Positions 37,810-53,128 of a stretch of DNA of 64,000 nucleotides are shown piece after piece; the stretch's first letter is position 1; each line of letters opens with the position of its first letter. The DNA is taken from IMG/VR virus record IMGVR_UViG_3300020411_000002; one strand, 5' to 3'. The translations under genes and the position numbers were made by a program. The notes beneath the pieces are model-generated. The model saw nothing but the letters and a program-made list of their open reading frames with translations, made no database searches and had not been told where the DNA came from. The stretch is from a virus (lineage: Duplodnaviria > Caudoviricetes).

Positions 37810-38334
37810 TTAAGTAAACGCTACGTCTAAATCGGTAGTAGAGTATTCGCGAGAATCAACAAAACCACCAAGTAGTTTCAAATCGGCGTCTGACTCTTCA
37901 TCGCCTACAGTACCTAGATATGATACGTTGGATCTTTCTGCTAGAGCAGGTAAGTCTGATTCTGTAACAATATTAGAACCTATATCTCTTTCTAATACCA
38001 AGAAAGCAAACCAAGTAGGCGTGCCTTCATTTATTTGTCTGAACAGTTCTAAACTTTCGCTTAGAGGCCACTGAACAAAGTTATAGTTCGGGAATCGAGG
38101 CTGCATACTCGAACCATACACGTTGAAGTTTAAAAGCGTATCTCCACGGTCAGAAGCCCAACTAAGAAGATTATTAACGATTACTTCTTGGTTGTCATCC
38201 ATTCCTTTTATAGCTTCTAGCTCTTCACGCGTAGGTTGCGTACCACCTGCAAAGACAAAAAGCATTTTAGAGCAAGGGGCACTAAAGGCAGAATAGTTAG
38301 ATAGTCTAACAAATGAATCTGAAACGTTTATCAT
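37810..38334 (-). CDS. Array paralogue, short (scaffold-only) type
   Basis: FVFAGGTQPT..EL, GTPTWF, GTVG....ADL.L. Confidence 0.75.
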   Translation of the reverse strand: MINVSDSFVRLSNYSAFSAPCSKMLFVFAGGTQPTREELEAIKGMDDNQEVIVNNLLSWASDRGDTLLNFNVYGSSMQPRFPNYNFVQWPLSESLELFRQINEGTPTWFAFLVLERDIGSNIVTESDLPALAERSNVSYLGTVGDEESDADLKLLGGFVDSREYSTTDLDVAFT

Positions 38335-39260
38335 TATACGTCCTCCACTTCGTCTGCAACAATTTCGCAGTGAACTAATCGAGCCGCTTGAGCAGGCTGG
38401 TGGTTTGTTTTAGCTAGAACCATTTCGGATGGTGATAGAGCGGAACCTACATTCATCCAAATGAAAGGAAAAGTTGTACCAAGTACATTTACCGAAGTAT
38501 GACTAACTAAGTCAAATAGAATAAGACCCCAAGTAACGTCATTCTTTGGAGTATTTACAAAGTCTGTTTTGTTAGAGAAGAAGTAAATACTTTCTATCCC
38601 CACTGTAGATATAGGTGCTACGTCAAACTGAACACGAACACGACTGCTATTAATAGGCTCTGCAAACTCTATTCTATCTTTCAGTTCATTTGAATCTACA
38701 ACTAAAGCAGTAGCCCAATCGCCGTTACCTTCATTTAGTGCTTCATCAAAGTACTTTACACTAAAATGTCCGTAATTGTAGGTAGCTGGAAAACGATAGT
38801 CAATACCATCAATTTGTGAATTTGCTTCAAATTCAAATTCAATGTAGTCCCCTACTTGTATGTACGTGTTACTGTACCAACGGTTAGACGGTAGGTGGTT
38901 AAATACATTAAGAAAATCGAAACGCTTAGCTTGTTCTATCTCTATATTTGTATCGACACTCAAAGGAACTAAATTGTTTACTTGTCCGCTACGATAAATA
39001 TCACTCCCATGACCCTTAAAGTGTATTCCAGTGTCTCCTGGTACACCTCTAAAGATAATAGAACTAGTATCGTCATTGTAAAGGAACTCAGACTCAATGA
39101 CTGCACTGCACTCGTTATACATAGATATCGGGTCTGTAGGGTCGAAAGTAAACAAATTTTTGTTAGCTGGAATATCTGAGCTAAACAAGAATATTTTACA
39201 TTGCTTTTTAGAAAGATTCTTTAAGGTCTTTCCTAGGCTTTTTGATTGCTCTATAATCAT
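38334..39260 (-). CDS. Array paralogue, long type with a discoidin (F5/8 type C)-like insert
   Basis: FLFSSDIP...FTFDP; insert EFEFEANSQIDG...DEALNEGNGDW...SRVRVQF...IESIYFF; VTWGLIL. Confidence 0.7.
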   Translation of the reverse strand: MIIEQSKSLGKTLKNLSKKQCKIFLFSSDIPANKNLFTFDPTDPISMYNECSAVIESEFLYNDDTSSIIFRGVPGDTGIHFKGHGSDIYRSGQVNNLVPLSVDTNIEIEQAKRFDFLNVFNHLPSNRWYSNTYIQVGDYIEFEFEANSQIDGIDYRFPATYNYGHFSVKYFDEALNEGNGDWATALVVDSNELKDRIEFAEPINSSRVRVQFDVAPISTVGIESIYFFSNKTDFVNTPKNDVTWGLILFDLVSHTSVNVLGTTFPFIWMNVGSALSPSEMVLAKTNHQPAQAARLVHCEIVADEVEDV

Positions 39261-39270
39261 TACATCAACC

Positions 39271-39831
39271 TTAATTAAGTTTGAATTTAATAGAAGACAG
39301 TTTGATAACTTTATCTAAAGTAACCTCAGTGTCAGAAATTTGAACCTCGCCGCCGTTTTCAACAGTATCAACGCGAGACATATTAATATAAAAAATAGCG
39401 TCAGTAGCGTCCACCAAAGGGTTTTCTAAATTAAAGTAATAAGATCTTACTACCATTGTAAGCAAGAAGCCTGCTTGACCTTCGGCTAATATATCAAACT
39501 TCGTTTCTGGACTTAATGAAGAATCAAATTCTATCAAGTCTTCATTAATTAGCGTCCACATTGAAGAATCGGCGTAAGTAAAACCTGTCGTACCCAAAAG
39601 AGTGTGTCCTAAATCATCTGAGATATAAGACAAAACATCTTTTATATTTACATTACCTATGTCACCAGTCGTTTGATTAAAGCGACCATCTTCTACAGCT
39701 TGTTGGAATTCATCAGCCGTAGGAGGCGTACCTGTGAAAAGTGCAAAAACCATTTGACCTTCATTAGTAACTTCGTATTCAATACCAACATAGTTGTTTG
39801 CCACAATAGACATTGATTTATTAATAAACAT
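39271..39831 (-). CDS. Array paralogue, short type
   Basis: FALFTGTPPTADEF, GQAGFLL, GGEVQISDT. Confidence 0.7.
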   Translation of the reverse strand: MFINKSMSIVANNYVGIEYEVTNEGQMVFALFTGTPPTADEFQQAVEDGRFNQTTGDIGNVNIKDVLSYISDDLGHTLLGTTGFTYADSSMWTLINEDLIEFDSSLSPETKFDILAEGQAGFLLTMVVRSYYFNLENPLVDATDAIFYINMSRVDTVENGGEVQISDTEVTLDKVIKLSSIKFKLN

Positions 39832-40859
39832 TAAAAGCTCTCCTTGGCTACAAACTTAAATTCAAGATTGAGCAAACTGTTAACACGCCCGGGTATAGGG
39901 TCTTCGTTAGAGAATATAGCTTCTCTTGGATCAAGAGGCCCACCAGCAGCGCTGACAATGTAAGGCATTTCAGGACTTACTTCAATAAATGTCTGATTTA
40001 CAGATAGTATACATGGAACTAGCAGCATCCAGCCGATAGTTGTTTGCGTATCTACTACAGTAGGTGTAGCACCGTAAAAAGAGATTTGTGCAATACGAGT
40101 ATTCAAGCTAGGAGAAGGTTCATTGAACTTAAAGCGAATTTTTCTAGTAGTCACTTCATCGAACCGAATCGTACTAAGACTAGATAGAGTTAAATCAACG
40201 GTATGGAAAGTTACCCAATCGCCGTTACCTTCATTCAAAGTATTATCCCAGCGCTGAATTTCTGTAGTCCCTACAAAAGCGTTGCTTTCTCGACTACTAT
40301 CGAACTCGATTAGATCGACAGGAACTTCTTTTTCAAAATCACACTCTAGATACAAGCCCGTAGTGCCTTCAGGAATCTCAGTATAAAAAGCAGCGTTGGT
40401 ATTAAAATCGTTCAGACCTGGAGTGAAGATAAAAGGAAAAGGAACTGTCGTTTCGTTTTCTGAAACTATCGAGTTTTTATCATAGTCTAATAGATTAGTA
40501 TTAGCAGTCTTAGGGATGTGTCTTGTCTTCTTCTTAGCATAGTCATAGTATCCTAACTTAGGAATACCAATAGGAACACCACGCTGCGACCATGCCACCT
40601 TGTCTTTTCTAGGACGAGAAGCTGTAACAAAGTTGGCTTGAACCATATTATTGTAGATAGCTTGCCAATTTAGAGTTCTGAAATCCTTAACAGGATAATC
40701 TAATATCTCATTAGAGTTAACAAACAAATCAAATGGTATTTCAGAGGGATTGGTAGGGGCAGTCCCTTCAAAAGCAAACGCGTAGTAATAAGGCCCTAGC
40801 TTGTCTACTATGTTGTGGGATCTAGTGTTACCAGAATAATCTAACATGCGTTTCCTCAC
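39831..40859 (-). CDS. Array paralogue, long type with a discoidin-like insert
   Basis: FAFEGTAPTNPSEIPFDL; WDNTLNEGNGDW; TRKIRFKF; IAQISFYG; IGWMLLV. Confidence 0.7.
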   Translation of the reverse strand: MRKRMLDYSGNTRSHNIVDKLGPYYYAFAFEGTAPTNPSEIPFDLFVNSNEILDYPVKDFRTLNWQAIYNNMVQANFVTASRPRKDKVAWSQRGVPIGIPKLGYYDYAKKKTRHIPKTANTNLLDYDKNSIVSENETTVPFPFIFTPGLNDFNTNAAFYTEIPEGTTGLYLECDFEKEVPVDLIEFDSSRESNAFVGTTEIQRWDNTLNEGNGDWVTFHTVDLTLSSLSTIRFDEVTTRKIRFKFNEPSPSLNTRIAQISFYGATPTVVDTQTTIGWMLLVPCILSVNQTFIEVSPEMPYIVSAAGGPLDPREAIFSNEDPIPGRVNSLLNLEFKFVAKESF

Positions 40860-41602
40860 ATACTAAAACGGGGGTTATTAGAAGGTTCACCAGACGGAAT
40901 GAATTTTAAACCGACAGGTGATACGAATTTAAAGCTTGTTGGTTGAACTTCATTTTCTACAATGTTCATAAAACTAACAGGCTTGGTTTCTGTACTGACA
41001 CCAGCAACGTCAATAGTAGAATTTCTTGAAGCTACTACTGACTCAACATCTATATCGAAAGAGACTTGACCCTCAAAATAGGTTGCGGTAGTCCAAATAG
41101 ACTCGCCGTTCAAGAACTTTACGTCTAACGATGCAGGAGTCTTTAAAGTTCGAGTATCTAAGATTCGTGGAACAAATTCAGAAGGACCTAGTGCCTTGTC
41201 TATCTGTTCATTTATCTGCGAAAAGAACACAGTAGAGTACGTTACTTCTAAAGCTGGTTCAGCTTGCATCTGTTTTGACTCTGAACCTACTAGATAGGTC
41301 ATATAGTTAGAAGTTGTTACTGTACTTATTGTAGCATCTGCTACAAACTCACCTAGTATTGTAGCATCAAGAGAGTAAAGCATTGCAACCTTCTTAAACT
41401 CTTGATCTTCTAAGAAGTAAGTACTTTGAGTAGCTCCACTGGATAGGATACTTTCGGTGTTGAAGTTGCTTTGTGTTATCGAGTAAACTGATACAGGGCC
41501 TGGAGTCTTAAAGAAGTGAGAACCAGATAGATTCTCACCATCGAATACATAAGTACCGGGCTCAAACTGATCAGCTACATACGGAATGACTTGTAGTAGC
41601 AT
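40856..41602 (-). CDS. Hypothetical beta-rich protein within the array (non-paralogue)
   Basis: 248-aa ORF lacking the array motifs. Confidence 0.6.
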   Translation of the reverse strand: MLLQVIPYVADQFEPGTYVFDGENLSGSHFFKTPGPVSVYSITQSNFNTESILSSGATQSTYFLEDQEFKKVAMLYSLDATILGEFVADATISTVTTSNYMTYLVGSESKQMQAEPALEVTYSTVFFSQINEQIDKALGPSEFVPRILDTRTLKTPASLDVKFLNGESIWTTATYFEGQVSFDIDVESVVASRNSTIDVAGVSTETKPVSFMNIVENEVQPTSFKFVSPVGLKFIPSGEPSNNPRFSM

Positions 41603-41611
41603 ATCTTTCCC

Positions 41612-42193
41612 TTATTCAGCAGGAGGTGTCTCTGGCTCGGCAGCAGGTGGAACAGGTTGTACATCAAATTGAATTACAACATCGTTCATTTTATGTCTGC
41701 GTGAAGTGCTGATTAGTGTATTTGCAATTTCCATATCCGACCCAGAGTCTACTGCACCTACTGTACCTACAACGTTCCAATAAGATACACTGTTAGTAGG
41801 GTTATTGTCTGGGTGTTGATACATCCAAAACCAAGTTGCCGTTTTATCGTCAGTAAGTCCGAAAGCAGTTTCATCACGTTGCGAAAACAAAAACTCTATT
41901 TGAGATTGCGTTACCAGTCGGCGCTGATTCATGTTATTGAACATGATATTCAAAAGCTCTGTATATCCAGCATTTGCGATAGCGTCTTTCATTTGACCTG
42001 CATACAACCAACCATCAGCATGGTAATTAGTTGTATCAGCAAGTGCTTGCATTTCTGCTTGCGTAGGAGGAGTACCGTCAAACAATATAACAGATATACT
42101 ATCGTTAGCGTTGCCGTAACACTCCCAATAGAGTTTAAGCAACATAGCCCTAAAGTCGTCATTAATTTCAATGTTCTGCATGTTTTTCTCCAA
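41612..42193 (-). CDS. Array paralogue, short type
   Basis: VILFDGTPPTQAEM, KTATWFW, GTVGAVDSGSDMEI. Confidence 0.75.
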   Translation of the reverse strand: MEKNMQNIEINDDFRAMLLKLYWECYGNANDSISVILFDGTPPTQAEMQALADTTNYHADGWLYAGQMKDAIANAGYTELLNIMFNNMNQRRLVTQSQIEFLFSQRDETAFGLTDDKTATWFWMYQHPDNNPTNSVSYWNVVGTVGAVDSGSDMEIANTLISTSRRHKMNDVVIQFDVQPVPPAAEPETPPAE

Positions 42194-42210
42194 ACTCGTT
42201 CATCTTTAAA

Positions 42211-43278
42211 TTAAAAAGTGTTGTCTATATCGATAAAGCCTCTTTGCAGTCGAGGTATATCTAAATTAGTCGCCTGTAGTGTATCAAACTCCAAGGGTGC
42301 GCCAGAGTTGTCTCCACTCTTACCTACGTTCAATAGCATAGCAGGATATCCTGGGTCTGGTTCAGCAAATGAACTAGCATATATCTTCTCATAGTAGCCA
42401 GAGTAAGTATCACGCTCAGGTAACATAAGAGCCCATGTAACAGTTCTTGAATCTTTACCCCAATCTGGTTCGTTTCCATAGAACTGAATTTGGTTCATAG
42501 CGAAAGTGCCGCCAGGTCCGTTACCAATTACCTTGAATCTGGTAGATATTATATCTGGAAATTCAAAATACATTTGAGTGCTATATACAGTATCATAAAG
42601 ATTATACTGGTCTACTGCTGTATACCAACCACCGTTACCGTCATTTAGTGTTTCGTCCCAAGCCTGTATAGTCCATAAGTTTGGTACGTTACCTGCGCTA
42701 GTCCAAGTCTTTAGAACCATTTGATTGATAGTTACAGGTTGGTCGTAAATAAACATGTGACCTGACGGACTAGAGTCATCAATAACTGAGCCGCCGTAGT
42801 TATTGATACTTTTTATTCGGTGTTCGTCATAGCGGCGAATCAATAAATCGTATCGATAAAGCCAGTGTGACTTACGTAGTGTATTTTCATCATCGTCATG
42901 AGAAGCTGGGTCTAGTAGTTGAGGTTCAAGTTCATCAGTCCAGTACTTTAGTGGAACACTACGTCTAGGTACTAGATGCCACTTGCGCCACTTAGGACTA
43001 AAGCCGTGTATATACGTTCCGAACTCCATGTCACCAGTAAGTGCCCAGTAATGTTTTGAATTTTCCGAAACTCTTTCTACATCAATCTGCTGGCTTGCAA
43101 CAGTATGCTTTTGCATTTCAAAAGGGTCTTTAATATCAAAAGGAAGATCGTTAATAGACTCAGGTGGCGTACCATCAAACAAGTGAAGCATAGCTGAACC
43201 TGTTTTCGGTGCATTAGTAGAAAACGCATAATAGAAAGCACTGATAGAAAAGCTTTCTTTAGAAGAAAATAAAAACAT
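42211..43278 (-). CDS. Array paralogue, long type with a discoidin-like insert
   Basis: LFDGTPPESINDLPFDI; WDETLNDGNGGW; STRFKV; MNQIQFYG; VTWALML. Confidence 0.7.
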   Translation of the reverse strand: MFLFSSKESFSISAFYYAFSTNAPKTGSAMLHLFDGTPPESINDLPFDIKDPFEMQKHTVASQQIDVERVSENSKHYWALTGDMEFGTYIHGFSPKWRKWHLVPRRSVPLKYWTDELEPQLLDPASHDDDENTLRKSHWLYRYDLLIRRYDEHRIKSINNYGGSVIDDSSPSGHMFIYDQPVTINQMVLKTWTSAGNVPNLWTIQAWDETLNDGNGGWYTAVDQYNLYDTVYSTQMYFEFPDIISTRFKVIGNGPGGTFAMNQIQFYGNEPDWGKDSRTVTWALMLPERDTYSGYYEKIYASSFAEPDPGYPAMLLNVGKSGDNSGAPLEFDTLQATNLDIPRLQRGFIDIDNTF

Positions 43279-43279
43279 G

Positions 43280-44410
43280 TTAACCCTCCGAGAACTTTAT
43301 GTTAAAGCTATTACATCTAACAATAGACCCACCATCTAGGTCTCTAGCTTTGTTTAGAATCAACATGTGGTTAGAGTCTGTTATGTCTCCTACGCTACAC
43401 ATCAAAATAGGAAGTCTACCTACTTGGGTCTCGCTGGAAGTATACACTCTTGGGAAATCATCAGTGCGATTTTCGTATGCATGTGGATAAACAAGAGCCC
43501 AAGTAATATCGTGAGTATCTTGTGCGTCATCAGGTTCAACACTAGACAACAAAGATATATGCTTGATATGCCAACTATATCTACCTGTATTTACCCCACT
43601 AACTTTAAACTTACGTGCAGTTACTTGTGGAATGTCCACAATTATATCTGACTCTACGTTAAAAGAAACTACAGATTCATCGTTGCGCCAGTGTTCTACC
43701 CACACAGAATTGGTTTCGTCCCAAACTTCAACAACTACAACACCGCTGGTATAAGGGGTTGAGCCGTGCGAATACACTTCTAACTTATCTACTGTTACAT
43801 CTTTACCGAAATCCATATATAGGCCAGTATCGTCGGAGAATGCGTATCGCCCACCAAAGTTTAATCCGTAATTAGCCCAAGTATCACCTTGGATGCCTGG
43901 AGTTCCTATATAACGCTCGTTGTAATAAGAATATGAACCGAAATAAGTTATCCAGCGGTGATGTTGAACTTCATTTAACGACAACTCATTTTCAGATCCA
44001 GGTTTAAGCGAGTATCTATCAGATGCATCCGCTCTATCAGGATTTGCTTCTAGATAATCAGTATGCAGTTCATACCTGCCTTGTGTCTTGGCATAAAGTC
44101 TCCAACATTTACGACGAAGATCCCAATGTGAAGATTTTACAGGAACTACGTTTAAGCTATGAAAAGATTCATGCGTATCGGCATTAGGTAATTCTCGAAC
44201 TTTACCAGATATCATAACTTGTGCAATACTGTTTCTATCAGTATCGTAAACGTTTTGAATATCCCAAGGAATTTCTTCTAGCGACTGAGGAACAGGACCA
44301 GAAAAAAGATAAACGTAGCTACGATCCCTACCTCCGGCGGTAGAATCATACGAAGTAAAGAACCTTGAAAAGGAATACGCGAAGCTACTTTTTGAACTAA
44401 AGGTAAACAT
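43280..44410 (-). CDS. Array paralogue, long type with a discoidin-like insert
   Basis: YLFSGPVPQSLEEIPWDI; MDFGKDVTVDKLEV; ARKFKV; WHIKHISLLS; ITWALV. Confidence 0.7.
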   Translation of the reverse strand: MFTFSSKSSFAYSFSRFFTSYDSTAGGRDRSYVYLFSGPVPQSLEEIPWDIQNVYDTDRNSIAQVMISGKVRELPNADTHESFHSLNVVPVKSSHWDLRRKCWRLYAKTQGRYELHTDYLEANPDRADASDRYSLKPGSENELSLNEVQHHRWITYFGSYSYYNERYIGTPGIQGDTWANYGLNFGGRYAFSDDTGLYMDFGKDVTVDKLEVYSHGSTPYTSGVVVVEVWDETNSVWVEHWRNDESVVSFNVESDIIVDIPQVTARKFKVSGVNTGRYSWHIKHISLLSSVEPDDAQDTHDITWALVYPHAYENRTDDFPRVYTSSETQVGRLPILMCSVGDITDSNHMLILNKARDLDGGSIVRCNSFNIKFSEG

Positions 44411-44412
44411 AA

Positions 44413-45486
44413 TTACTCCAAAAACAGTTTCAAAGAAGTAGGTTCAATCTTTTGTTTTGCACCTATGTCCGTAGCTTTTTCTACAAACAGTGTTCCAAAA
44501 GAATCATTATCCCCTACAGTCATTGCCAGCAAAGGACAATTACTTTGTGTGCTATAGTCTGCATGTATGTTATACATATCAAAATCAGTACCACTATATC
44601 TATTATAGACACCGTTCCAGTAAGGCAGCATTATACACCAACGAACTGTTTTGGTAGTATCAATATTGACAGGCTCTGCATTGGTATAAAACGTTAGATA
44701 CTTTAATATCCAACCGTAATAACCTGTGTCTCCCGGTACAAGTCGAATCGTCTTAGCAACTACAGGATTAGCGAGAGCAACAAATGATTTATCATTGCCG
44801 CCTGGATACGACACACGTTCCGCTCTGTCCCACTCTTGGGTGTCTTCGTTAAACACATCTAAGTCAAAGTATGAGTTATCGTAACGAGAGCCTGAATGAG
44901 TTTGATGAATACCTACGTGTGAAATAGTCTGCTCCGTTTCAAACTCTACAACAAATGGGTCGTTGTATGCATATCGATTAGGAGATACATAGAACTGACT
45001 TGCACTATTGCCTTCTACATAATCGTCAGGGTCTAAACTCATAGCCAAGAAAGTAGGTACTATAGTTCTAAATCCAGAGAATTGATCTTCTGTGGTTAGC
45101 GTACCTGCTCTTTCTTTTTGCCAGTTTTCCTCGTTCACTACTAAACGTGGGAAAATGCGCCAAACACTATTCGCTTCGTCTAGATAAGGAATGTTGATAA
45201 GGCTAGCCTGGTCAACTGAACCATCACCTCTTACCAGATAAGGGTCTAGTTCGAAAGCACCACTGTCTGAGTGGTACGTTATGTTTGAGTGCGTGTGTGC
45301 GCAACTATTTCTGACTATATCAAAAATGTTCTTGGTATCAAAAGGCGCTTGTGCTAAAGAGCTAGGTGGTTCACTGTCAAAGTAGAAAATCATACCTCGA
45401 CCACCACCGCTTTGCGCTTCTGCTTTTCCTAAGAATATTTCCGACATAGAGTGCATCTGTGCATGTTGATGTTTAAATAAATACAC
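44413..45486 (-). CDS. Array paralogue, long type with a discoidin-like insert
   Basis: FYFDSEPPSSLAQAPFDT; VEFETEQTISHVGI; AKTIRLVP; WILKYLTFY; VRWCIML. Confidence 0.7.
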   Translation of the reverse strand: MYLFKHQHAQMHSMSEIFLGKAEAQSGGGRGMIFYFDSEPPSSLAQAPFDTKNIFDIVRNSCAHTHSNITYHSDSGAFELDPYLVRGDGSVDQASLINIPYLDEANSVWRIFPRLVVNEENWQKERAGTLTTEDQFSGFRTIVPTFLAMSLDPDDYVEGNSASQFYVSPNRYAYNDPFVVEFETEQTISHVGIHQTHSGSRYDNSYFDLDVFNEDTQEWDRAERVSYPGGNDKSFVALANPVVAKTIRLVPGDTGYYGWILKYLTFYTNAEPVNIDTTKTVRWCIMLPYWNGVYNRYSGTDFDMYNIHADYSTQSNCPLLAMTVGDNDSFGTLFVEKATDIGAKQKIEPTSLKLFLE

Positions 45487-45497
45487 AAGTTACCTCT

Positions 45498-46859
45498 TTA
45501 TTCTTTAACTATAAATAAACCATCGCTAGTATAAACCTGGGCTAAGTTACCTGACCTACGATAATCGAAGTAATAATATCGATAGTAGTCCCTAGGTCCT
45601 GCCATCATTAAACTAGTTCCTTCGTCTGCTGAGTAACTGCCGTACCCACTATAGCCGTAAGCATCATGTAATGTCCTACCAAAGTCACGATACCATAAGT
45701 CTAGTTTTTCTCTACTAAATGTACCAGTAGGTCCGTTACCTGCATAGTCTGCTTCTTCCTCTGCAAACCAAGACAGTAAAGCTTGAACCTCATCTTGAGT
45801 AGCCAGACGGTGGTTTGCAAATTCAGGTCTGTCGGTATCTAAAAACTCTTGAATACTCATTTCTCTAGTATGGTAAAGCTTCAACCAAGTTAAGCCTACA
45901 TGCGTAGAGTACTGAGCGTCTGAGAATAGAGTTTCTTTTGGATACAAAGGAGTTTGGACAATGTAGTCAGGCTCAATGCCTTTACGTACAAGCATAACAC
46001 CAGTATCAGATCTAGAATACGTTATGTCTTGGTCGTATCTCCAATCAAAGACACTTCCATTAGACCAGTAACCCCCTCCACCTAATTTCTCACTTTGCTC
46101 TGAGTTAGGTTGATCTCTGGAAAACTCATACCACCAGCCGTATGCAGGTCCACCTAAATATTCTCTTAAAGCGTTATCAATTTCAGTAGGATAACTACGA
46201 GATATAGCAGGAGATCCACAGATAGAGTCAAACAGAGTAGCAGAAGGGTCAACAGATCTAATTATGTTATTTATAAACGTAATAGCTTCGTAGTTGTTAG
46301 CTACTCTCCAACCTGAGAACATTGGGTCATCTTCAACTTCTTGTATACTCTTGCCGTTAGTTTCGCTAAGTTTCAACCACTCTAGACCAGTATAGTGATC
46401 GGCTGTTATTAAAGCGTCACCTCCTCCTATCATGTCTCTGTGTGTAATGCCTTCATCAAGTTCTACGTTAGTCGAGGGCTCTTCAATAGTTAAAAGATAT
46501 TGATGATCAGTTAACGTATAAGGACTATCTACCTCGAACAAAGCAAATAAAACATCAAGTCCGCTGCTTTTAAAATTTAGACTGCAAGAATCTAAGTCAA
46601 CTGTAGCAGGAATACTTAAAGTGAAAACAGGTTCAGCATACAAGTAATATTTAGAACTGTCTGTTAAGTCACTAGGTATAGAACCTGATATAGTTTTAGG
46701 TTTAAATATTTGAGATACATCAGACTCTTTTACCAATATGTTATCGAATGTACCTTTTTCAGTAGTTACTTTTATGTCTATTTTGGCAGGATACGGGTAT
46801 ATCCTGCCTGGGTCTCCAAACGCACTATAAATAGTGTCTACGGAAAGTAGCTTACTCAT
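45498..46859 (-). CDS. Protein with two tandem Lcl/DUF1566-like (C-type-lectin-fold-like) repeats
   Basis: TGLEWLKLSET..KSIQE...GWRVAN..E and VGLTWLKLYHT..MSIQE...HRLAT..EV. Confidence 0.55.
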   Translation of the reverse strand: MSKLLSVDTIYSAFGDPGRIYPYPAKIDIKVTTEKGTFDNILVKESDVSQIFKPKTISGSIPSDLTDSSKYYLYAEPVFTLSIPATVDLDSCSLNFKSSGLDVLFALFEVDSPYTLTDHQYLLTIEEPSTNVELDEGITHRDMIGGGDALITADHYTGLEWLKLSETNGKSIQEVEDDPMFSGWRVANNYEAITFINNIIRSVDPSATLFDSICGSPAISRSYPTEIDNALREYLGGPAYGWWYEFSRDQPNSEQSEKLGGGGYWSNGSVFDWRYDQDITYSRSDTGVMLVRKGIEPDYIVQTPLYPKETLFSDAQYSTHVGLTWLKLYHTREMSIQEFLDTDRPEFANHRLATQDEVQALLSWFAEEEADYAGNGPTGTFSREKLDLWYRDFGRTLHDAYGYSGYGSYSADEGTSLMMAGPRDYYRYYYFDYRRSGNLAQVYTSDGLFIVKE

Positions 46860-47396
46860 TTACATCACCAATAAATCACCTACGTCAATACTTAGACTGG
46901 ATGGGAAAATTAAGTCTTGGTCTGTAAGATTTAATTTAACTAGCTGCATATCTCCGCCTTCACCCATAAGACTTACTGCACCTGTGAATGCATAGTGCTG
47001 ATTATCAAGAGAAGCCGACATTGACCGTATAGCAAACCAACTAGCAGTACCAGAATTAAACTGATTTTGTGCGTGTGCGTCTTTGGTGTAATCAGCTCGG
47101 TCTCGTTGATTAAACTTAAAAGATACCACGTTATCTTCGATAGAGATATTTTTAGAAAAATCGTTTAAGACAAAACGGCGAATTATATCCATACTTCTAT
47201 TAGAAGTGAAGGCATCCCACTTAGAAGGGTCAATCCATCCAGTTCCATCTGGTAGGTAAATGTTTGAAAGTTCTAATTCAGATTTAGTAGGAAGAGTACC
47301 AGCATAAATATCTAGTATCATTGAGTGACCTAAGTCCTGACCAAATCTATTTTGCAAAGAGAAATTTAATATATCACTAGTTGCAAGAATAGTCAT
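46860..47396 (-). CDS. Array paralogue, short type
   Basis: LDIYAGTLPTKSEL, GTASWFAI, GAVS..GEGGDMQL. Confidence 0.75.
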   Translation of the reverse strand: MTILATSDILNFSLQNRFGQDLGHSMILDIYAGTLPTKSELELSNIYLPDGTGWIDPSKWDAFTSNRSMDIIRRFVLNDFSKNISIEDNVVSFKFNQRDRADYTKDAHAQNQFNSGTASWFAIRSMSASLDNQHYAFTGAVSLMGEGGDMQLVKLNLTDQDLIFPSSLSIDVGDLLVM

Positions 47397-47938
47397 TACG
47401 CAATCCTACCATTGATAGAGAAGTTTAAAGTAATATCACTGAGCTTGAAAGGTATAGAAGGGTCAAGCTCAACATTAGACAGTTCCATATCAGCACCAGA
47501 GCCTACAGCACCAATACTTCCAGCAACGGCCCAATAACTAGTGGTGTTCTGAAACATTGCTGATGCAGCACCGTATTGGATAAAGAACCAACCTGCTGTA
47601 CCGGCTACATCCGGGTTGAAACGCTCACTACGTTTAGAAAAATACATACGAACTTTCTCAGGCTCTAGATGCTCTTGATACACGAAGTTGATATAAGAAC
47701 CAGTTAAAAGAACTGTATTTCCAGAACCGAGTGCTTCCATGTTGGTACGAAAGGATGCATTGAAATAAGGCCAACCGTGCGCATGATAACTATCTACACA
47801 GCCAAGTAAGTCTTCTTTACTTGGCAGAGAGCCTTGCATAATAGCAAAAGTTATTTCATCGTTTCTATTAGTACTATCTGCGAACATTGTTTTCAACAAA
47901 GAAGATTTGAATGAGTTATTAGGTATAATTTTAGGCAT
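47396..47938 (-). CDS. Array paralogue, short type
   Basis: FAIMQGSLPSKEDL, GTAGWFFI, GSIGAVGSGADMELSN. Confidence 0.75.
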   Translation of the reverse strand: MPKIIPNNSFKSSLLKTMFADSTNRNDEITFAIMQGSLPSKEDLLGCVDSYHAHGWPYFNASFRTNMEALGSGNTVLLTGSYINFVYQEHLEPEKVRMYFSKRSERFNPDVAGTAGWFFIQYGAASAMFQNTTSYWAVAGSIGAVGSGADMELSNVELDPSIPFKLSDITLNFSINGRIA

Positions 47939-47948
47939 TGCTGTTACC

Positions 47949-49184
47949 TCAAGCGTCTGTAAAGTCTAAAATGAAATTGGCAAGTTCAGGCACTTGACCC
48001 GGTTTAATGTTACGTGCTTTGGTTAGAGTTACCGCAGCATCTTTGTTCGGTCCGTCTACATCTACGAGAAGTAAAGGAATTGGAAGTTTGCTTACTTCTG
48101 GACTTTCAACAAGATTTTGGTCAGTGAACCAAGCTTCTTTTACGTCATCAGAGGCATAGTAATCACGATACATAAAGTCATCAAAAGAGAAAGCTCTATC
48201 GTGATAAGGAAGAATAAGGCCCCAAGTTATATCAGTATCAACAGGCATTGTAGGAGGAGGAGTAGAACTTAACAGTCTTACGTATCCAAAGTTCATATCG
48301 TAATAACCCGAATCGTTAAAAGTAAGTCTAAACGCTTTACCCGTTACAATAGTTTCAAGCTCAATGTACTGAGCTTTACTGTCAACACCGTTTTCTTCAA
48401 GGTCAACACGTTGAGTACTAGTCCAATCTCCATTTCCATCATTTAAGGTCTCGTCCCAAACTTCAACGTCTACCTGAGAACTTGAGTATCTGTTATCTGA
48501 GAAATCGCCTCTGTAGTATTCTAAGGCGTCTACTTCAATAGCTTCATCAAATTCTAGTATTAAAGGATAATCTTGGGCACCGCGTGGACTGTATCTGCTA
48601 TAGTAACTGTAATCTCTACCGTTAGTAGCGTTACTGTCCTGCGGCTGATCTGAGCGATTACGGTCGCGGAAACGATTTAGATTCCAGTAATAACGCATAC
48701 CTAGCATTATATAGTTGTACCTGAACTCGGTATGAATCATAGAGCTGTGGTTATACTCTACACGTTGAGCAGGCGAAGAAGAAGTGGTTAAGTTTTTAGA
48801 TCTAATGTTGTCTAAAGTACCTGACTTCCAATCCTTCCATGCTTCTTCACGCAACATTACGCGTGGATAAAAAGACCACTTGTTGTAGTTCAAATCCAAG
48901 TAAGGTTGCTTGGGCGTAAGATACGTTCTAGTATGACCAGCCATAAACGAATCAGACGTAGGTTCTGTTTCTAGTTTATTCATAGTCATTGAGATACCAA
49001 CTTCTGCTTGCGCATACATTTCTAACAAATCACTTTGGTCGAAAGGCAAAGAGTCTAAGTCAGTAGGAACAGGGCCTTTAAAACCAAGAAAGAATAAATC
49101 ACATGCGTATAATCCTCTATTGTCATTAAGACCTGAATAGCAAAAGCTGTGTGCAAAAGTAATTGAAGGTTTAAGTGTATACAT
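47949..49184 (-). CDS. Array paralogue, long type with a discoidin-like insert
   Basis: GFKGPVPTDLDSLPFDQ; LEFDEAIEVDALE; WDETLNDGNGDW; GKAFRL; ITWGLIL. Confidence 0.7.
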   Translation of the reverse strand: MYTLKPSITFAHSFCYSGLNDNRGLYACDLFFLGFKGPVPTDLDSLPFDQSDLLEMYAQAEVGISMTMNKLETEPTSDSFMAGHTRTYLTPKQPYLDLNYNKWSFYPRVMLREEAWKDWKSGTLDNIRSKNLTTSSSPAQRVEYNHSSMIHTEFRYNYIMLGMRYYWNLNRFRDRNRSDQPQDSNATNGRDYSYYSRYSPRGAQDYPLILEFDEAIEVDALEYYRGDFSDNRYSSSQVDVEVWDETLNDGNGDWTSTQRVDLEENGVDSKAQYIELETIVTGKAFRLTFNDSGYYDMNFGYVRLLSSTPPPTMPVDTDITWGLILPYHDRAFSFDDFMYRDYYASDDVKEAWFTDQNLVESPEVSKLPIPLLLVDVDGPNKDAAVTLTKARNIKPGQVPELANFILDFTDA

Positions 49185-50311
49185 TATTCACTTCCCAAAA
49201 GCTTCAAGTTAAAATCTAAAATCTGAACCTCACTTAGTGCTTCCAGACCTCGGCTCTTGTTTAAGGTAACTGCACAACCATCACCAGATTCTCCTACGTC
49301 TAAGAATAGAAAAGGATAGCCTTCACGATTCCATAGAGTAGATTCTGTTTCAAAAGAGCCGTATCTAATATTGGGAGAGTCATAGATGTTGGTGGCGTTT
49401 GTATAAGAAAGAGCAGCCCATGTAATATCTACAGGTCCAGTACCGTAAGTAGGTTCTGTACTTGAACATAGGTGGATAAAGAGCAAATACGGGTGATACC
49501 CGCCTGTGTCGGACATGCGTAACTTGAATTTCTTTGCAGTGTAAGACTGAGAAAAAGAAACCAACTGCGCCTGTGATGTACCTTTAGTTACAGATAGTCT
49601 TTCCATATCTACCCAAACTTCATCTACTTCGTTCCAATATTGGAAGTCGTAGTGCTCACTTGCGTAAGCGGTCCCTGTAGAACCTAAAGCCAAGAACATA
49701 CTATCTACAGTAACAGCCTGGTCATACGTAAATACCATTGGGAATCTATAAGGGTATCTAGATAACTTGGTGTTAAAGTTATCAGTCTTGTACCAGCGTT
49801 GTCTAGGAGAGTAACGCAATACATCAAGATTGTACGCATCCCGCATTTCATTCATTTCCCAAACTAGGCTTCGAGAAAGACCGTCAGTGCCTTCGCCTTG
49901 TAGGTCTCCAGGCTCTACGTTCTCTAACCACTTAGCTGTGCCTTCATGAGTTCTAGAAAGCGTTAGCAAAGAGTGTGAAAGAATCCACTTTTGCATTGCA
50001 GGTACAAACTTGTGACGTTTAACCGTTATCCAGTTTTCCACATTACTGTAATTGAATTGAGAAACACCGGGTTTATCTAAAATAGGATCGCCGTTAAGCT
50101 GACTCATTGCTATGCTGTTTCGAGAGAACTCAGCAAAGTTAGTCTGCATTTCTATTGGAACGTCTTGTACTGAGTTTGGCACATCACCTGTAAAGAAGTA
50201 CAGTACAGTGTTATGATTGTAGTTCGATACGTAGTTTGCAAAGTTATTGGTAAAACTATGACCTAAAGCCATTTGTGAAATTAAGCTATACATGTTAGTC
50301 CTTAAATACAA
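49184..50311 (-). CDS. Array paralogue, long type with a discoidin-like insert
   Basis: YFFTGDVPNSVQDVPIE; FTYDQAVTVDSM; AKKFKL; ITWAAL. Confidence 0.7.
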   Translation of the reverse strand: MYLRTNMYSLISQMALGHSFTNNFANYVSNYNHNTVLYFFTGDVPNSVQDVPIEMQTNFAEFSRNSIAMSQLNGDPILDKPGVSQFNYSNVENWITVKRHKFVPAMQKWILSHSLLTLSRTHEGTAKWLENVEPGDLQGEGTDGLSRSLVWEMNEMRDAYNLDVLRYSPRQRWYKTDNFNTKLSRYPYRFPMVFTYDQAVTVDSMFLALGSTGTAYASEHYDFQYWNEVDEVWVDMERLSVTKGTSQAQLVSFSQSYTAKKFKLRMSDTGGYHPYLLFIHLCSSTEPTYGTGPVDITWAALSYTNATNIYDSPNIRYGSFETESTLWNREGYPFLFLDVGESGDGCAVTLNKSRGLEALSEVQILDFNLKLLGSE

Positions 50312-51659
50312 GATTGAACTTTACTAACCCAGGCGTTTGTCCTGTAATTAGGCTCAGATTGTCTACTTCGATACTATCAGTTTCTGTAGTACCTACATCA
50401 CACAATATATAAGGAGTGAAGCCTCTAGAAGCTGTTAGAATTCTATCTTGTTGAGTTTCGAAATCCTCTGTAGGAATAATCATTGCCCACTGTATAGTCT
50501 CTAAAGACTCTGACGTATAGATAGGTTCAGCTTTAGAATAAGCAGACATGTGATTAATCGACCAATGTGGATCTCCACTGTATATGACAGTCTGTTTCAT
50601 TAGGCCATCAATGCATACAATTCTAACAAAGCTTTCTACCATTACTGGATCTATCTCTTTGCTAATGAAGCCTTCACCAGAAATAGAGTAAGTGTTACCT
50701 ATATCCCAAGTGTTACTTTCTGTATTCCATACGTCTACTCTAAAAGTTTCGCATGATGTGCTGTAAAGAGAGTTACCGCTCCAATGGGCTTGCTTTTGTC
50801 GAGAGTCAATTAAACGCTGGCGTAAAGATATAGCGCTCAGTATGATAGGCACTTCTGTTTCTGGAATATCATGTTTCTTGAAAGAAGTAAAATCTTCAAT
50901 AGTACCTGCATCGACCCAATATCCATTGTTATAAATATCGTCGTTTTTAAGTACATATATAGAAACGATTTCAGTACCACCAGCAACTAAATCAACTGCG
51001 TAATCTAATACAGAAACTACATTGCCTAATTCGTCGGCACTAGCAGTCTCTTGCTCAAAAGAATACGTTGACTGGTACGTACCTGAATCCAATGTGCTTA
51101 AATGGTGTTCGAATACAGTATCTAATAAAGACTGTTCTGACATTGTAGGTACGTAGTAATAAAGACGAGAGTTAAACAGTTGCTTAGTTCCAGAGAAGTC
51201 TAGTACTACACTGCTGTCTTCTCTACCTACACGTAAGAAGGCAGAATCTGCGATAGAGTTTTTGAATCCGTAGTCATATTCCACCTGGGCCCAAGTAGAT
51301 ATTGCACTTGTAAAAACAGGCATATCGTTATTTAGAATCTCGGTAGTGTAGAAGTTCTTGTACGGAACTTTTGAAAAGTTTTCTTGTGTAAGTCCTTCAC
51401 CTGTTTCTGGTATTGACTCTATCGTATTAGATAGAGATACACTGACAGTGGACTCGCCGGGCAAGCTCTGTGTTTGAAAATCGTTTAATCCAATAGCCCA
51501 ACTATGAACATGTTGAGAAATATCAACAATATCCAAAGGATTAAAAGGGAGCGATTGTAAGTCAGAAGGCATTTGTGACGCAAAGAAAAATACTTGATAC
51601 TTCAAGCCTACTTCGCTCATGCCTTCTGACATTATGTTTGAAATATTAATACCTTGCAT
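50295..51659 (-). CDS. Array paralogue, long type (largest insert)
   Basis: FFFASQMPSDLQSLPFNP; VWNTESNTW; SFVRIV; WSINHMSAYS; IQWAMII. Confidence 0.7.
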   Translation of the reverse strand: MQGINISNIMSEGMSEVGLKYQVFFFASQMPSDLQSLPFNPLDIVDISQHVHSWAIGLNDFQTQSLPGESTVSVSLSNTIESIPETGEGLTQENFSKVPYKNFYTTEILNNDMPVFTSAISTWAQVEYDYGFKNSIADSAFLRVGREDSSVVLDFSGTKQLFNSRLYYYVPTMSEQSLLDTVFEHHLSTLDSGTYQSTYSFEQETASADELGNVVSVLDYAVDLVAGGTEIVSIYVLKNDDIYNNGYWVDAGTIEDFTSFKKHDIPETEVPIILSAISLRQRLIDSRQKQAHWSGNSLYSTSCETFRVDVWNTESNTWDIGNTYSISGEGFISKEIDPVMVESFVRIVCIDGLMKQTVIYSGDPHWSINHMSAYSKAEPIYTSESLETIQWAMIIPTEDFETQQDRILTASRGFTPYILCDVGTTETDSIEVDNLSLITGQTPGLVKFNLVFKD

Positions 51660-51667
51660 GTTATTTC

Positions 51668-52654
51668 CTAAGTATTAAAACGTATAGATGTTCCTATAAC
51701 TTCTGGATACTGATTTTCGTCAGGTTGCACATCTAAAGCAGAAATGTCCGCGACTATTATAGGTTTATCAATAAGTGCCGAAGCTAAGTTTTCTAATGCG
51801 CTGTCTAATCTAGGGACTATCAAAAGCCAATCAGCACTTGGAAAGCTATCAACAGGTTCGTCTGTTAGCGCTGTAAGATACTTAACGTTCCATTGAGGGT
51901 TTCCAAAAGTTCTATGACCTGGGTGGTTTCCCCAACTGCCGTCCCTGCTAACTATCTTAATAGCGCGAGTCTGTACTGGTGTATCTAAAGTTATTACATT
52001 TCCATTAGTGCCTAGATTTTCATATCTCTGCACTAGAACGAAACCTCCAGCACCTTCATTTTCATCATCAGACCAGTAATAAAAATCAACAGACGTAGCG
52101 TAAGCATACGCTCTATATCTAGCACCACCATATCGGTACTCTATAGAATTCTGATCAAAAGAAAACCCTGTTACGTTACGAACTTTATCGAATACTGCAA
52201 ATAAAGGTACGCCTGATCTACCTATACTAAATCCATTAAATCCATTGTTGGCTGTATTTTCTCTATAGAATAAAGAGTTGACCGAAATTTCAGTGCGAAA
52301 GCGTTCTGGATAAGAATCAAAGCTTATCTGATCCTCGTCAAAAGTTTTCCACCCTATATAGAAAGGACTGATTTCGTTATGCCCTTCTACAACACTAGGT
52401 CGAATTCCTATAGGTCTCATTCTCCACTGAGTTTTTGGACTAGACAAAAAATCAATAAATCCTAATGGCTTAGAATCTATGCTACCGTATAGATTATAGT
52501 AAACGGAATTTTCTATAAGAGATATGTAGTTCAAGTCGAATGGTATAGCATCTAAGCTTTGCGGCATAGTGCCTTGAAAAAAGAAAGCATCGAACCAATC
52601 GTAGTCGATAGAAAATCCAAATGCCGCTAATTTGTTTAAGTTAATTCCTTGCAT
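51668..52654 (-). CDS. Array paralogue, long type with a discoidin-like insert
   Basis: FFFQGTMPQSLDAIPFDL; AVFDKVRNVTGF; TRAIKI; WNVKYLTAL; ADWLLIV. Confidence 0.7.
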   Translation of the reverse strand: MQGINLNKLAAFGFSIDYDWFDAFFFQGTMPQSLDAIPFDLNYISLIENSVYYNLYGSIDSKPLGFIDFLSSPKTQWRMRPIGIRPSVVEGHNEISPFYIGWKTFDEDQISFDSYPERFRTEISVNSLFYRENTANNGFNGFSIGRSGVPLFAVFDKVRNVTGFSFDQNSIEYRYGGARYRAYAYATSVDFYYWSDDENEGAGGFVLVQRYENLGTNGNVITLDTPVQTRAIKIVSRDGSWGNHPGHRTFGNPQWNVKYLTALTDEPVDSFPSADWLLIVPRLDSALENLASALIDKPIIVADISALDVQPDENQYPEVIGTSIRFNT

Positions 52655-52711: not shown

Positions 52712-53128
52712 TTATTCTCTGATTACTGCAAATACTGCTTTACCATCGATAGGTGTAGTGTTGAAAGTAATCTCTACAGTGTTTTCGTCAACTGTAGTAA
52801 TATCGTCAGGAACGATAACTTTGCCCGCACTATCAAATACCGTTACCAAGTACGCTACGCTATTCATGTTGTGAACAATATTCCACGTAGTAGCAGCTTC
52901 GCTTTGAGCATGAACATAGTTATCGGTGTTACCTGCAACATCGTCTAGTAGCACTGCTTGAAGTGTACCAGAAATGTTCATTAGTATTTCACCTTCTTTA
53001 AGCTCAATACCAGTAAGCTGACGAGGACCTGCACCTTGTCGAACAATAACAGAGTTAGCTGGAACATCACTAGGCAAGTACGGTCGCAAAGGAAGTTCTG
53101 TCTGAATGAAATCAGTAAAAGCACTCAT
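52712..53128 (-). CDS. Putative virion structural protein
   Basis: YVHAQSEAATTWNIVHNMN...VTVFD..G..IVPD.I...DENTV.ITF, a motif common in phage virion proteins. Confidence 0.55.
   Translation of the reverse strand: MSAFTDFIQTELPLRPYLPSDVPANSVIVRQGAGPRQLTGIELKEGEILMNISGTLQAVLLDDVAGNTDNYVHAQSEAATTWNIVHNMNSVAYLVTVFDSAGKVIVPDDITTVDENTVEITFNTTPIDGKAVFAVIRE

Follow-up and report, generated by a model that had tools for sequence, protein, structure and literature searches.

Fourteen garland-like paralogues at the end of a tail gene block in a marine jumbo myovirus, nine of them with a galactose-binding-type insert

The closest described relatives of the proteins studied here are the baseplate garland proteins of phages 7-7-1 and Milano. 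In Agrobacterium phage 7-7-1, gp014 (141 aa, annotated as a virion structural protein; PDB 9RKV, with 139 residues in chain 9rkv_A) was observed by cryo-EM as garland dimers surrounding the fibre tips. The garland of Milano consists of two paralogues, gp125 and gp127, that form homo- or heterodimers, and its fold and dimer were reported to resemble gp8 of T4 and gp105 of Listeria phage A511 (PMC10811340). T4 gp8 and A511 gp105 are dimeric baseplate proteins that join receptor-binding proteins to the baseplate.

The window analysed here is a 64,000-nucleotide stretch of virus DNA (IMG/VR record IMGVR_UViG_3300020411_000002). Positions 37810-52654 hold 16 closely packed tandem ORFs of the minus strand, transcribed from 52654 down to 37810. 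They comprise five short genes (S, 174-193 aa), nine long ones (L, 308-454 aa) and two unrelated ones (x248 and x453), in the transcription order L L L L S S x L L L S x L S L S. The ORF layout agrees exactly with the 14 paralogues, five S and nine L, and the gene order given in the preliminary description. The gene junctions range from a 17-nt overlap, which depends on an uncertain TTG start of L375, to a 17-nt gap, and four of them are 1-nt start/stop overlaps. In the direction of transcription, the features are:

52712..54786, minus strand: upstream neighbours in the same orientation, a 138-aa Ig-like protein and a 552-aa protein.
51668..52654, minus strand: L328, array gene 1, garland-like scaffold with galactose-binding-type insert (BLASTP and family alignments); position evolutionarily fluid, positional group not monophyletic.
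50295..51659, minus strand: L454, L paralogue by BLASTP and alignment, with an additional insertion of about 100 aa in the insert domain; positional group not monophyletic.
49184..50311, minus strand: L375, L paralogue (BLASTP; S-HMM full E 3e-3; orthologue clade support 1.0); with an alternative ATG six codons downstream of the TTG, the overlap is gone.
47949..49184, minus strand: L411, L paralogue (BLASTP; Pfam F5_F8_type_C E 5e-4, below the cut-off), overlapping L375 by 1 nt.
47396..47938, minus strand: S180, scaffold-only, garland-like (S-HMM E 5e-45; BLASTP to S193 1e-22).
46860..47396, minus strand: S178, scaffold-only, garland-like, 1-nt overlap with S180 (S-HMM E 2e-33).
45498..46859, minus strand: x453, non-member inside the operon.
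44413..45486, minus strand: L357, L paralogue (BLASTP); Pfam F5_F8_type_C E 2.5e-4 at residues 157-260, below the cut-off.
43280..44410, minus strand: L376, L paralogue and modelled reference (S-HMM two-piece match, E 2e-6).
42211..43278, minus strand: L355, L paralogue (BLASTP; S-HMM E 5e-3).
41612..42193, minus strand: S193, scaffold-only, garland-like, modelled reference.
40856..41602, minus strand: x248, non-member inside the operon.
39831..40859, minus strand: L342, L paralogue (BLASTP; Pfam F5_F8_type_C_2 E 0.011), followed by S186 with a 1-nt overlap.
39271..39831, minus strand: S186, scaffold-only, translationally coupled to L342 (S-HMM E 1e-34).
38334..39260, minus strand: L308, shortest L paralogue (BLASTP), overlapping the next gene, S174, by 1 nt; modelled as chain 1 of the complex.
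37810..38334, minus strand: S174, scaffold-only, last array gene (phrog_17152 E 5e-15; S-HMM E 2e-44); predicted partner of L308.

Family membership was established by all-versus-all BLASTP, which joined the nine L proteins, in most pairs at E 1e-3 to 1e-22, and likewise S193, S180, S186 and S178 (E 1e-3 to 1e-22). S174 was linked to the S group through phrog_17152 and the S profile. Against the S and L profiles, x248 and x453 gave hhalign probabilities below 3% (x248 below 1%) and are therefore non-members. When the S profile was aligned to the L profile, hhalign found two separate matches. The N-terminal one joined S 5-99 to L 1-111, with the confident columns in the first 45 residues or so (E 1.4e-3), and the C-terminal one joined S 28-178 to L 205-375, with confident columns at about S 100-178 to L 290-375 (E 2.6e-5). 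Similarly, an HMM built from S proteins only matched L376 in two pieces on either side of the insert (full E 2e-6) and recognised the C-termini of the L proteins of Phage NCTB (E 1e-6). A BFVD search with the S model matched L-type proteins of NCTB, Dickeya phage JA13 and Erwinia phage Yoloswag. All 14 proteins have in common an alpha/beta scaffold of about 170 aa, marked by an N-terminal helix and by F-x-G-x-x-P, G-T-x-x-W-F and G-x-V-G...D-L strands. A single scaffold in both types had been proposed before, and the two-piece matches bear this out.

The AlphaFold2 model of S193 (pLDDT 89.8, pTM 0.84) superimposed on 9rkv_A with a VIA Z of 10.8 and an rmsd of 3.5 A over 132 of the 139 residues, where the runner-up reached Z 6.0; Foldseek gave E 1.3e-5 for the same pair. 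In sequence, the GTATWF and G-x-V...DL motifs of the S profile recur in gp012 and gp014 of 7-7-1 (hhalign E 4.5e-5; genome-wide E 0.0046). Since this sequence similarity is weak, the garland link rests mainly on the fold. The garland proteins of 7-7-1 (gp014, gp012) and Milano (gp125/gp127) have the alpha/beta fold that is predicted for S (Z 10.8), and their x-G-x-x-P, G-T-A-x-W-F and G-x-V...D-L motifs recur in the array proteins. Both are small paralogous proteins encoded in gene clusters of myovirus tail modules. Homology and predicted fold together show the 14 scaffolds as likely old paralogues of a phage baseplate garland protein. Because the Milano paper reports the likeness to gp8 and gp105, the S scaffold probably falls into this broad group of baseplate adaptor dimers. 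No sequence similarity of the scaffold to T4 gp8 or A511 gp105 was found, and the S193 model gave only a weak fold match to a baseplate chain of Staphylococcus phage phi812 (9euf_b, Z 4.3).

The array also differs from the known garlands. It has 14 paralogues where 7-7-1 and Milano have 2-3, its S proteins are 30-50 residues longer, and nine copies carry a lectin-type domain of 130-280 aa spliced into the scaffold, which is absent from any described garland protein. The phage is a jumbo phage of about 250 kb from another lineage, and its array is not beside the recognisable fibre genes.

The model of L376 was of moderate confidence only (pLDDT 72.6, pTM 0.79). It divided the protein into the scaffold (1-94 and 295-376) and a galactose-binding-type domain (about 95-294), in which residues 113-196 form a variable loop modelled at low confidence. 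With this insert, Foldseek returned 76 PDB matches at E <= 1e-3 (best E 5.5e-5), and the best 50 of these 76 were all F5/8-C, CBM32, discoidin or related galactose-binding-type domains. VIA gave Z 8-10.3 to 48 chains. In Pfam, PF00754 and PF22633 were near-threshold matches of the insert; of 31 L-family members, four matched F5_F8_type_C (best E 3.1e-6), and the copies in the window did not reach the curated cut-off. The predicted fold confirms a beta-sandwich of the galactose-binding/CBM32/discoidin type, as had been read from the sequence, with the Pfam support being weaker. Compared to CBM32 and F5/8 type C (discoidin) domains, which have the same fold, the L domain is inserted into another domain rather than appended, and a long low-confidence loop of 46-118 aa follows its first strands. 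Among the paralogues this loop is 12% identical. The preliminary description of highly divergent, aromatic-rich loops holds for the divergence between paralogues; the aromatic content (F+W+Y, 11-15%) is high along the whole L proteins and not enriched in the loops. In one relative, an array-type scaffold is fused to a Laminin_G_3 lectin-type domain.

Garland proteins are dimeric, and the array dimer, which is predicted only, uses the same scaffold. The complex model of L308 with S174 reached an ipSAE of 0.67, compared to 0.00 for the best of three controls. Of 80 solved complexes, 58 attained this mark, as did 2 of 110 mismatched pairs; these counts are only rough here because our own alignments were used for L308-S174. 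In the predicted interface, each scaffold contributes its N-terminus and its VG strand. Such a model does not distinguish a true partner from a close paralogue and may echo memory of solved garland dimers. The L-to-S overlaps of 1 or 4 nt are kept in five phages (the window, the relatives L003 and L006, NCTB and Y3), and the L342-S186 overlap is kept in L003 and L006. With the ipSAE contrast and this conserved coupling, the co-assembly of S and L proposed before is plausible, and L-S pairing has support in silico.

The count, order and lengths of the array genes are identical in the window and in the marine metagenomic relatives L003 and L006; NCTB has the same gene number and order and is nearly identical overall. 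Homologous arrays of the same lineage are found in Erwinia phage vB_EamM_Y3 (gp079-gp097) and the Dickeya phages JA11 and AD1. At their 3' ends, L-S pairs alternate and overlap in the same way, but these arrays are distant (22-39% similarity where detectable) and lack public annotation; at least 8 members were recovered by profile in Y3, compared to 14 in the window. Twelve of the 14 positional groups were monophyletic with support of 0.83-1.0, the exceptions being the first two positions. With the conserved count and order and this monophyly, the set of 14 paralogues is old and fixed.

The array had been proposed to diversify by gene amplification, in a combinatorial display with ongoing gain and loss of copies. 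Numerous tandem paralogues, the fluid positions 1 and 2 and a copy number that varies somewhat among distant relatives, from at least 8 (Y3) through 11 (L011, a partial locus) and 13 (L012) to 14 (NCTB), would fit this. However, count, order and lengths are fixed among the close relatives, the positional groups are monophyletic, paralogues are only 12-20% identical and no long DNA repeats occur between copies, the longest shared DNA being 46 nt at 67-78%; selection on the array is also purifying. Ongoing amplification is therefore largely refuted and very improbable. Hypervariability was observed between paralogues only; between orthologues, divergence was even across all protein regions. Amplification-driven hypervariability was contradicted by this evenness together with the fixed gene number and order and the monophyly. 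No repeats of DGR or invertase type were found for the array, in agreement with the earlier reading.

Compared to L003, nucleotide identity was 64-82% in the array and 91-96% outside, and the drop started and stopped near the array borders. Accordingly, dS was 0.8-3.0 in the array and 0.24-0.49 in the flanks, and dN/dS in the array was 0.04-0.22. The whole array is thus a divergence island under purifying selection, and differences between phages are attributed to divergence or exchange that affects the module as a unit. The upstream neighbours at 52712..54786 are outside the island.

The phage is a marine jumbo myovirus of the Lu11/PaBG/NCTB/Y3 lineage, and the array is at the far end of its tail/baseplate-hub block, with the tape measure, baseplate hub and gp5-like genes closely upstream in the same orientation. 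The 552-aa neighbour matches a PHROG family labelled tail sheath; the NCTB annotation calls it "Phage tail assembly", that of Y3 "virion structural protein". This raises the question of whether S and L are subunits of the curly hairs or whiskers along the sheath of "hairy" jumbo myoviruses instead of a baseplate garland. Y3 and Dickeya JA11, both described as hairy, carry S/L arrays, a simple garland needs fewer than fourteen different subunits, and the hairy-phage literature we found does not name the hair proteins. Against this, the S profile had no match in Lu11 or CBB, both reported hairy, a search of limited sensitivity that leaves absence unproven, and it does find gp012 of 7-7-1, while the S fold matches gp014, located in the baseplate by cryo-EM. 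We regard the hair reading as doubtful.

The array borders an Acb1 anti-CBASS homologue as well as further small accessory genes, and defence and counter-defence loci also typically form divergence islands. In Y3, the Dickeya phages and NCTB, the annotation of S and L proteins goes no further than "hypothetical protein". The recognisable tail-fibre genes are at about 2431-9661, at least 28 kb away, which counts against the garland reading. Small genes 3' of fibre genes often encode chaperones, which also counts for proteins acting in or on the infected cell, e.g. as fibre-assembly chaperones, superinfection-exclusion lectins or counter-defence factors. Such a non-virion role is improbable: fold and motifs match proteins found in virions by mass spectrometry annotation and cryo-EM, the 16 genes are one tightly coupled operon continuous with the tail genes, and nothing about a lectin domain inserted in a structural scaffold that dimerises hints at an enzyme or inhibitor. 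The two non-members inside the operon remained without family matches, x248 in family searches and x453 in Pfam. Orthologues of x248 occupy the same position in NCTB, L003 and L006. In x453, a G-L-x-W-L-K-L module is duplicated (internal repeat E 2e-6), possibly an Lcl_C/DUF1566-like lectin repeat, which we give as a lead only.

In conclusion, we consider it somewhat probable that the array encodes garland-like lectin dimers of the virion for host adhesion, as 14 old garland paralogues and two unrelated genes. The surface role proposed earlier is plausible since the scaffold is homologous to the garland proteins of 7-7-1 and Milano located by cryo-EM. For this garland reading, we count the divergence island as a population-level sign that the module interacts with the host; the placement in the virion, the mesh and its binding of glycans are what we infer. 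The 16 genes would be co-transcribed as one fixed operon, and the scaffolds would pair as dimers in the manner of garland proteins, with at least some being defined L-S heterodimers from translationally coupled genes. The dimers would build a multi-subunit mesh at the periphery of the baseplate or tail fibres. Variation between phages would arise by divergence or recombinational exchange of the whole module, not by copy-number change or targeted mutagenesis. Because nine garland copies carry a sugar-binding-type domain, the array probably builds a sticky, multi-part tail adhesion structure, in which the lectin-type domains of the mesh would bind host-surface polysaccharide weakly and at many points as the phage adsorbs.

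The array at 37810-52654 consists of 16 open reading frames that follow one another nearly without spacing on the minus strand. They are transcribed in the order L328, L454, L375, L411, S180, S178, x453, L357, L376, L355, S193, x248, L342, S186, L308 and S174, where S denotes the five short scaffold-only proteins, L the nine long proteins with an insert, x two unrelated genes and the digits the length in amino acids. This is exactly the order of the preliminary description. The gene junctions range from a 17-nt overlap, which depends on an uncertain TTG start, to a 17-nt gap, and start and stop overlap by 1 nt at four of them. In an all-against-all BLASTP comparison the nine L proteins were linked to each other, most pairs with E-values of 1e-3 to 1e-22, and so were S193, S180, S186 and S178; S174 was tied to the other S proteins via phrog_17152 and the S profile. 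The genes x248 and x453 are non-members, since their hhalign probability was below 3% against both the S and the L profile.

For x248, the Atlas feature search gave no match. The x453 gene (45498-46859, minus strand) has an internal duplication of a module beginning with G-L-x-W-L-K-L (E 2e-6) and received a weak Atlas pointer to Lcl_C/DUF1566, a C-type-lectin-like fold, while its sub-regions had no Pfam match. Its counterpart in the phage relative NCTB is a 136-aa gene that retains only the first ~60 residues. x453 may be a further lectin-type component of the same assembly.

The relation between the S and L proteins was analysed by profile-profile comparison, which gave two separate local matches. 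One covered S 28-178 and L 205-375 (E 2.6e-5) with confident columns at about S 100-178 and L 290-375, and the other S 5-99 and L 1-111 (E 1.4e-3), where the first ~45 residues were the confident columns. Similarly, an HMM built from the S proteins only matched L376 in two pieces, N-terminally over model positions 8-37 and C-terminally over positions 97-171 (full E 2e-6), and also matched the C-termini of the NCTB L proteins (E 1e-6). The AlphaFold models of S193 and L376 agreed in the order of secondary-structure elements outside the insert, and the S model retrieved L-type proteins of NCTB, JA13 (Dickeya) and Yoloswag (Erwinia) from a viral structure library. Since the S profile splits around the L insert and the models agree, the core of the preliminary description, a single scaffold that occurs both alone and with an insert, was correct. 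The L proteins have similar N-termini, e.g. M-F-x-F-S-S-K-x-S-F, because they are paralogues; residues 1-16 would form a helix in the predicted dimer interface.

An exhaustive search with the S profile yielded 306 cluster representatives at E <= 1e-3. Among the 150 representatives listed, nearly all were 120-215 aa long and unnamed, and cluster look-ups of the S relatives gave no informative names. Word-indexed protein searches found 18 S and 9 L relatives, all without names. No phage genome was matched by the array in Megablast, and no relatives carrying L376 were found in IMG/VR.

The identity of the scaffold emerged from the S193 model, which was computed with an alignment of 93 profile-search relatives (pLDDT 89.8, pTM 0.84). 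Its sole clear solved relative was chain A of PDB 9RKV, "Agrobacterium phage 7-7-1 tail fibers", with a VIA Z of 10.8 (rmsd 3.5 A, 132 of 139 residues aligned; next match 6.0) and a Foldseek E-value of 1.3e-5 at probability 1.00. The length of this chain is consistent with gp014 of 7-7-1 (141 aa), a protein annotated as virion structural and one of the garland proteins of the baseplate. Garland proteins enclose the distal ends of tail fibres and spikes in the virion, and their genes belong to the receptor-binding-protein cluster. By sequence, hhalign of the S profile against gp012-014 gave E 4.5e-5. The S HMM was run against six 7-7-1 proteins and matched gp012 (E 6e-7) and gp014 (E 1.3e-4), whose G-T-A-T-W-F and G-x-V...D-L motifs align with the S profile, and a six-frame search of the whole 7-7-1 genome with the S profile returned gp012 (E 0.0046). 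The sequence homology of S to gp012 and gp014 is weak but specific. None of gp012-014 had a Pfam match. The solved 147-aa "Structural protein" 44nx_B was also matched by the S profile (E 0.0017-0.0033), with G-T-A-S-F-F and G-T-V...S-G-A-D-M aligned, and is probably another member of the garland family. Troponin C and calmodulin appeared in the same PDB search only through a short G-T-x-P-T-x-x-E-L stretch and were taken as chance matches; the L profile found nothing in the PDB by sequence. The garland of the phage Milano consists of two paralogues, gp125 and gp127, which are ~30% identical and form homo- and/or heterodimers, and the authors likened their fold to the dimeric baseplate adaptors T4 gp8 and A511 gp105 (PMC10811340).

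The insert of the L proteins had been described as discoidin-like. The model of L376, built from 31 family members, reached pLDDT 72.6 and pTM 0.79 with a confident core; residues 158-184 fell below pLDDT 50 inside a weaker stretch at ~131-190. Residues ~96-294 form a distorted beta-sandwich (jelly-roll) of the galactose-binding type, with 76 Foldseek matches in the PDB at E <= 1e-3. All 50 of these that were listed were CBM32, factor V/VIII C2, discoidin, neuropilin b1/b2, APC10 and similar domains, and VIA with the L376 insert gave 48 chains at Z >= 8 (top 10.3). On these matches the term discoidin-like holds for the fold, with weaker support by sequence: three window copies matched Pfam F5_F8_type_C or F5_F8_type_C_2, all under the curated cut-off (20.6-21.6 bits against 28.2 bits for PF00754), and L376 had no Pfam match. 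Among the 31 family members, four matched F5_F8_type_C at E <= 0.01 (best 3.1e-6). Domains of this class bind carbohydrate or lipid by way of loops located at one end of the sandwich. From the modelled fold we infer that the L insert may bind glycans.

Four of the L genes share a conserved 46-nt stretch that encodes a D-E-x-L-N-[DE]-G-N-G-D-W loop, which we take to resemble a calcium-binding-type loop.

Positions of the conserved 46-nt stretch (minus-strand genes)
38702-38747, in L308
40202-40247, in L342
42612-42657, in L355
48410-48455, in L411

A related loop is present in L328, and the N-x-G-x-G insertion is absent from L376, L375, L357 and L454. In the partial locus L011 (8001-9836), a related metagenomic array, a 611-aa protein fuses an N-terminal S scaffold (S-HMM E 2e-25) to the concanavalin-like Laminin_G_3 domain, showing that the scaffold accepts different lectin-type domains.

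L and S genes take turns at the 3' end of the array (L-S-L-S), and L342/S186 as well as L308/S174 overlap by 1 nt. Overlaps of 1 or 4 nt from L to S are kept in NCTB, in the Erwinia phage Y3 and in two marine metagenomic jumbo-phage relatives, L003 and L006, and the alternation is present in two further metagenomic arrays. These conserved gene pairs point to defined heterodimers. The complex of L308 and S174 was modelled with an ipSAE of 0.67 (runs 0.55, 0.67 and 0.73), whereas the best of three controls scored 0.00; 58 of 80 solved complexes attain the ipSAE mark, as do 2 of 110 mismatched pairs, which is approximate since own alignments were used. To the predicted interface each chain would contribute its N-terminal helix, G-x-x-P region and V-G strand, giving a pseudo-symmetric scaffold dimer. 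The proposed hetero-oligomers of S and L were thus scored over controls for this one pair, in a model that does not discriminate between the cognate partner and other paralogues and possibly reflects memory of solved dimers. It supports, but does not show, binding of L308 to S174.

Tape-measure, hub and gp5-like genes are the immediate upstream neighbourhood of the array, and the recognisable fibre genes (~2431-9661) are at least 28 kb off, in a second tail module with baseplate-wedge and fibre genes at 1-18890.

Genes around the array
62598-63554, same orientation as the array, upstream: baseplate hub gene
59882-62608, same orientation, upstream: tape-measure-like gene
55591-56430, same orientation, upstream: gp5-like baseplate hub gene
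upstream, same orientation: 552-aa protein of a PHROG family labelled tail sheath
upstream, same orientation: Ig-like protein of 138 aa
36953-37396, minus strand: 147-aa homologue of Acb1, an anti-CBASS phosphodiesterase (Pfam PF23474, E 1e-17)
6544-9661, minus strand: three adjacent proteins with many PHROG tail-fibre/collagen-like families and virion structural phrog_38766, the recognisable fibre module

A PDB sequence search with the 552-aa protein gave no match. The Acb1 homologue is found ~400 nt downstream of the array with one small gene between, a position kept in L003 and L006, and nucleotide-metabolism genes also follow downstream. The two tail modules are separated by an opposite-strand block that contains a thymidylate-synthase homologue (26085-27470, plus strand), whose PHROG match leaves out the first ~70 residues, and also a DHH phosphoesterase (27467-28540, plus strand). 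That the array proteins have a role outside the virion appears improbable to us.

In scans for sigma-70 promoters, terminators and the TGTAAATA motif the array was not enriched. Contigs from metatranscriptome libraries covered the array at >=99% identity, which does not prove that it is transcribed, since DNA can be present in libraries of this kind. The phage is uncultured and its DNA recurs in marine metagenomes from several studies. It belongs to the Lu11/PaBG/NCTB/Dickeya/Erwinia jumbo lineage (PMC7412058).

The preliminary description attributed the diversity of the array to gene amplification. All 16 genes recur, in unchanged order and at nearly equal lengths, in NCTB (LT598654) and in the two marine metagenomic jumbo-phage contigs (239 and 250 kb). 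In the trees, the positional groups were monophyletic for seven of nine L and all five S positions (support 0.83-1.0), and only the first two array positions are evolutionarily fluid. The duplications are therefore older than these phages. No long DNA is shared between the paralogues: the longest direct repeat among them spans 46 nt (67-78% identity) and codes for the conserved W-D-E-T-L-N-E-G-N-G-D-W. Ongoing amplification as the source of diversity is thus largely refuted and we regard it as very improbable. A diversity-generating retroelement or an invertase, discounted from the outset, was rejected on the repeats: the inverted repeats reach at most 31 nt with 71-85% complementarity, and the direct and inverted repeat search of the array found no repeats of the retroelement or shufflon type. 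The variable loop of the insert is hypervariable between paralogues, where it is 12% identical and 46-118 aa long, but not between orthologues. There, identity was even over the N-terminal scaffold, insert core, variable loop and C-terminal scaffold (76-81% against L003, 54-60% against L006), which rules out localised hypervariability. Aromatic residues, thought to mark the loops, make up 11-15% all through the L proteins and are not loop-specific.

Compared with L003, the closest relative, the flanks are 85-96% identical in nucleotide sequence (mostly 91-96%) and the array 64-82%. The shift starts and stops within a few hundred bases of both array borders (37800-52700). The dS against L003 was 0.24-0.49 in the flanks, 0.80 in the border gene S174 and 1.2-3.0 in the other 15 array genes, and dN/dS stayed at 0.04-0.22. 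The high dS and low dN/dS show that the array is a much older allele than the backbone and is under purifying selection. The intermediate dS of S174 suggests a recombination breakpoint in or beside this gene. Either the whole module was exchanged or divergent alleles are maintained, the usual signature of host-interaction modules, and this divergence or exchange of the whole module takes the place of the amplification idea.

We propose, with moderate confidence, that garland-like scaffold dimers at the periphery of the baseplate or fibres present lectin-type domains for the binding of host glycans. The scaffolds would form garland-like dimers, partly as defined L-S heterodimers, these would assemble at the periphery, and up to nine different lectin-type domains would be presented for multivalent binding of host surface glycans. 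The "hairy" nature of Y3 and the Dickeya phages (PMC6143709) makes it attractive to regard the array proteins as the tail "hairs", but this reading is weakened by the S profile, which finds no match in the hairy phages Lu11 and CBB, and we consider it rather unlikely. It is similarly doubtful, though conceivable, that each baseplate sector holds about seven different pseudo-symmetric dimers, five L-S and two L-L, which together build a large ordered lectin lattice underlying the bushy or "hairy" ornament on the tails of this jumbo-phage lineage. This would be a new multivalent glycan-recognition organ, which arose as a garland scaffold able to take up different lectin domains (discoidin here, Laminin_G_3 in a relative) was duplicated repeatedly.

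The literature search found no published description of the array. Garland proteins first entered the literature in 2024-2025, from two small Agrobacterium phages that have two or three very small paralogues whose role was unclear, whereas the present array holds 14 fixed paralogues, nine of them with a spliced-in lectin-type domain. New are this expansion of the garland scaffold, the spliced-in lectin domain and the conserved L-S gene pairs. Conservation of the array extends from marine phages to those infecting the plant pathogens Erwinia and Dickeya, in which all its genes are still annotated as hypothetical. If the peripheral dimer reading is true, ~6% of the genome in a whole jumbo-phage lineage would be annotated, and the garland would get a concrete role in multivalent glycan adhesion. 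It is directly testable in cultivable relatives of the phage. The array would then be a unit that diverges or is exchanged block-wise, and hence a likely determinant of host range.
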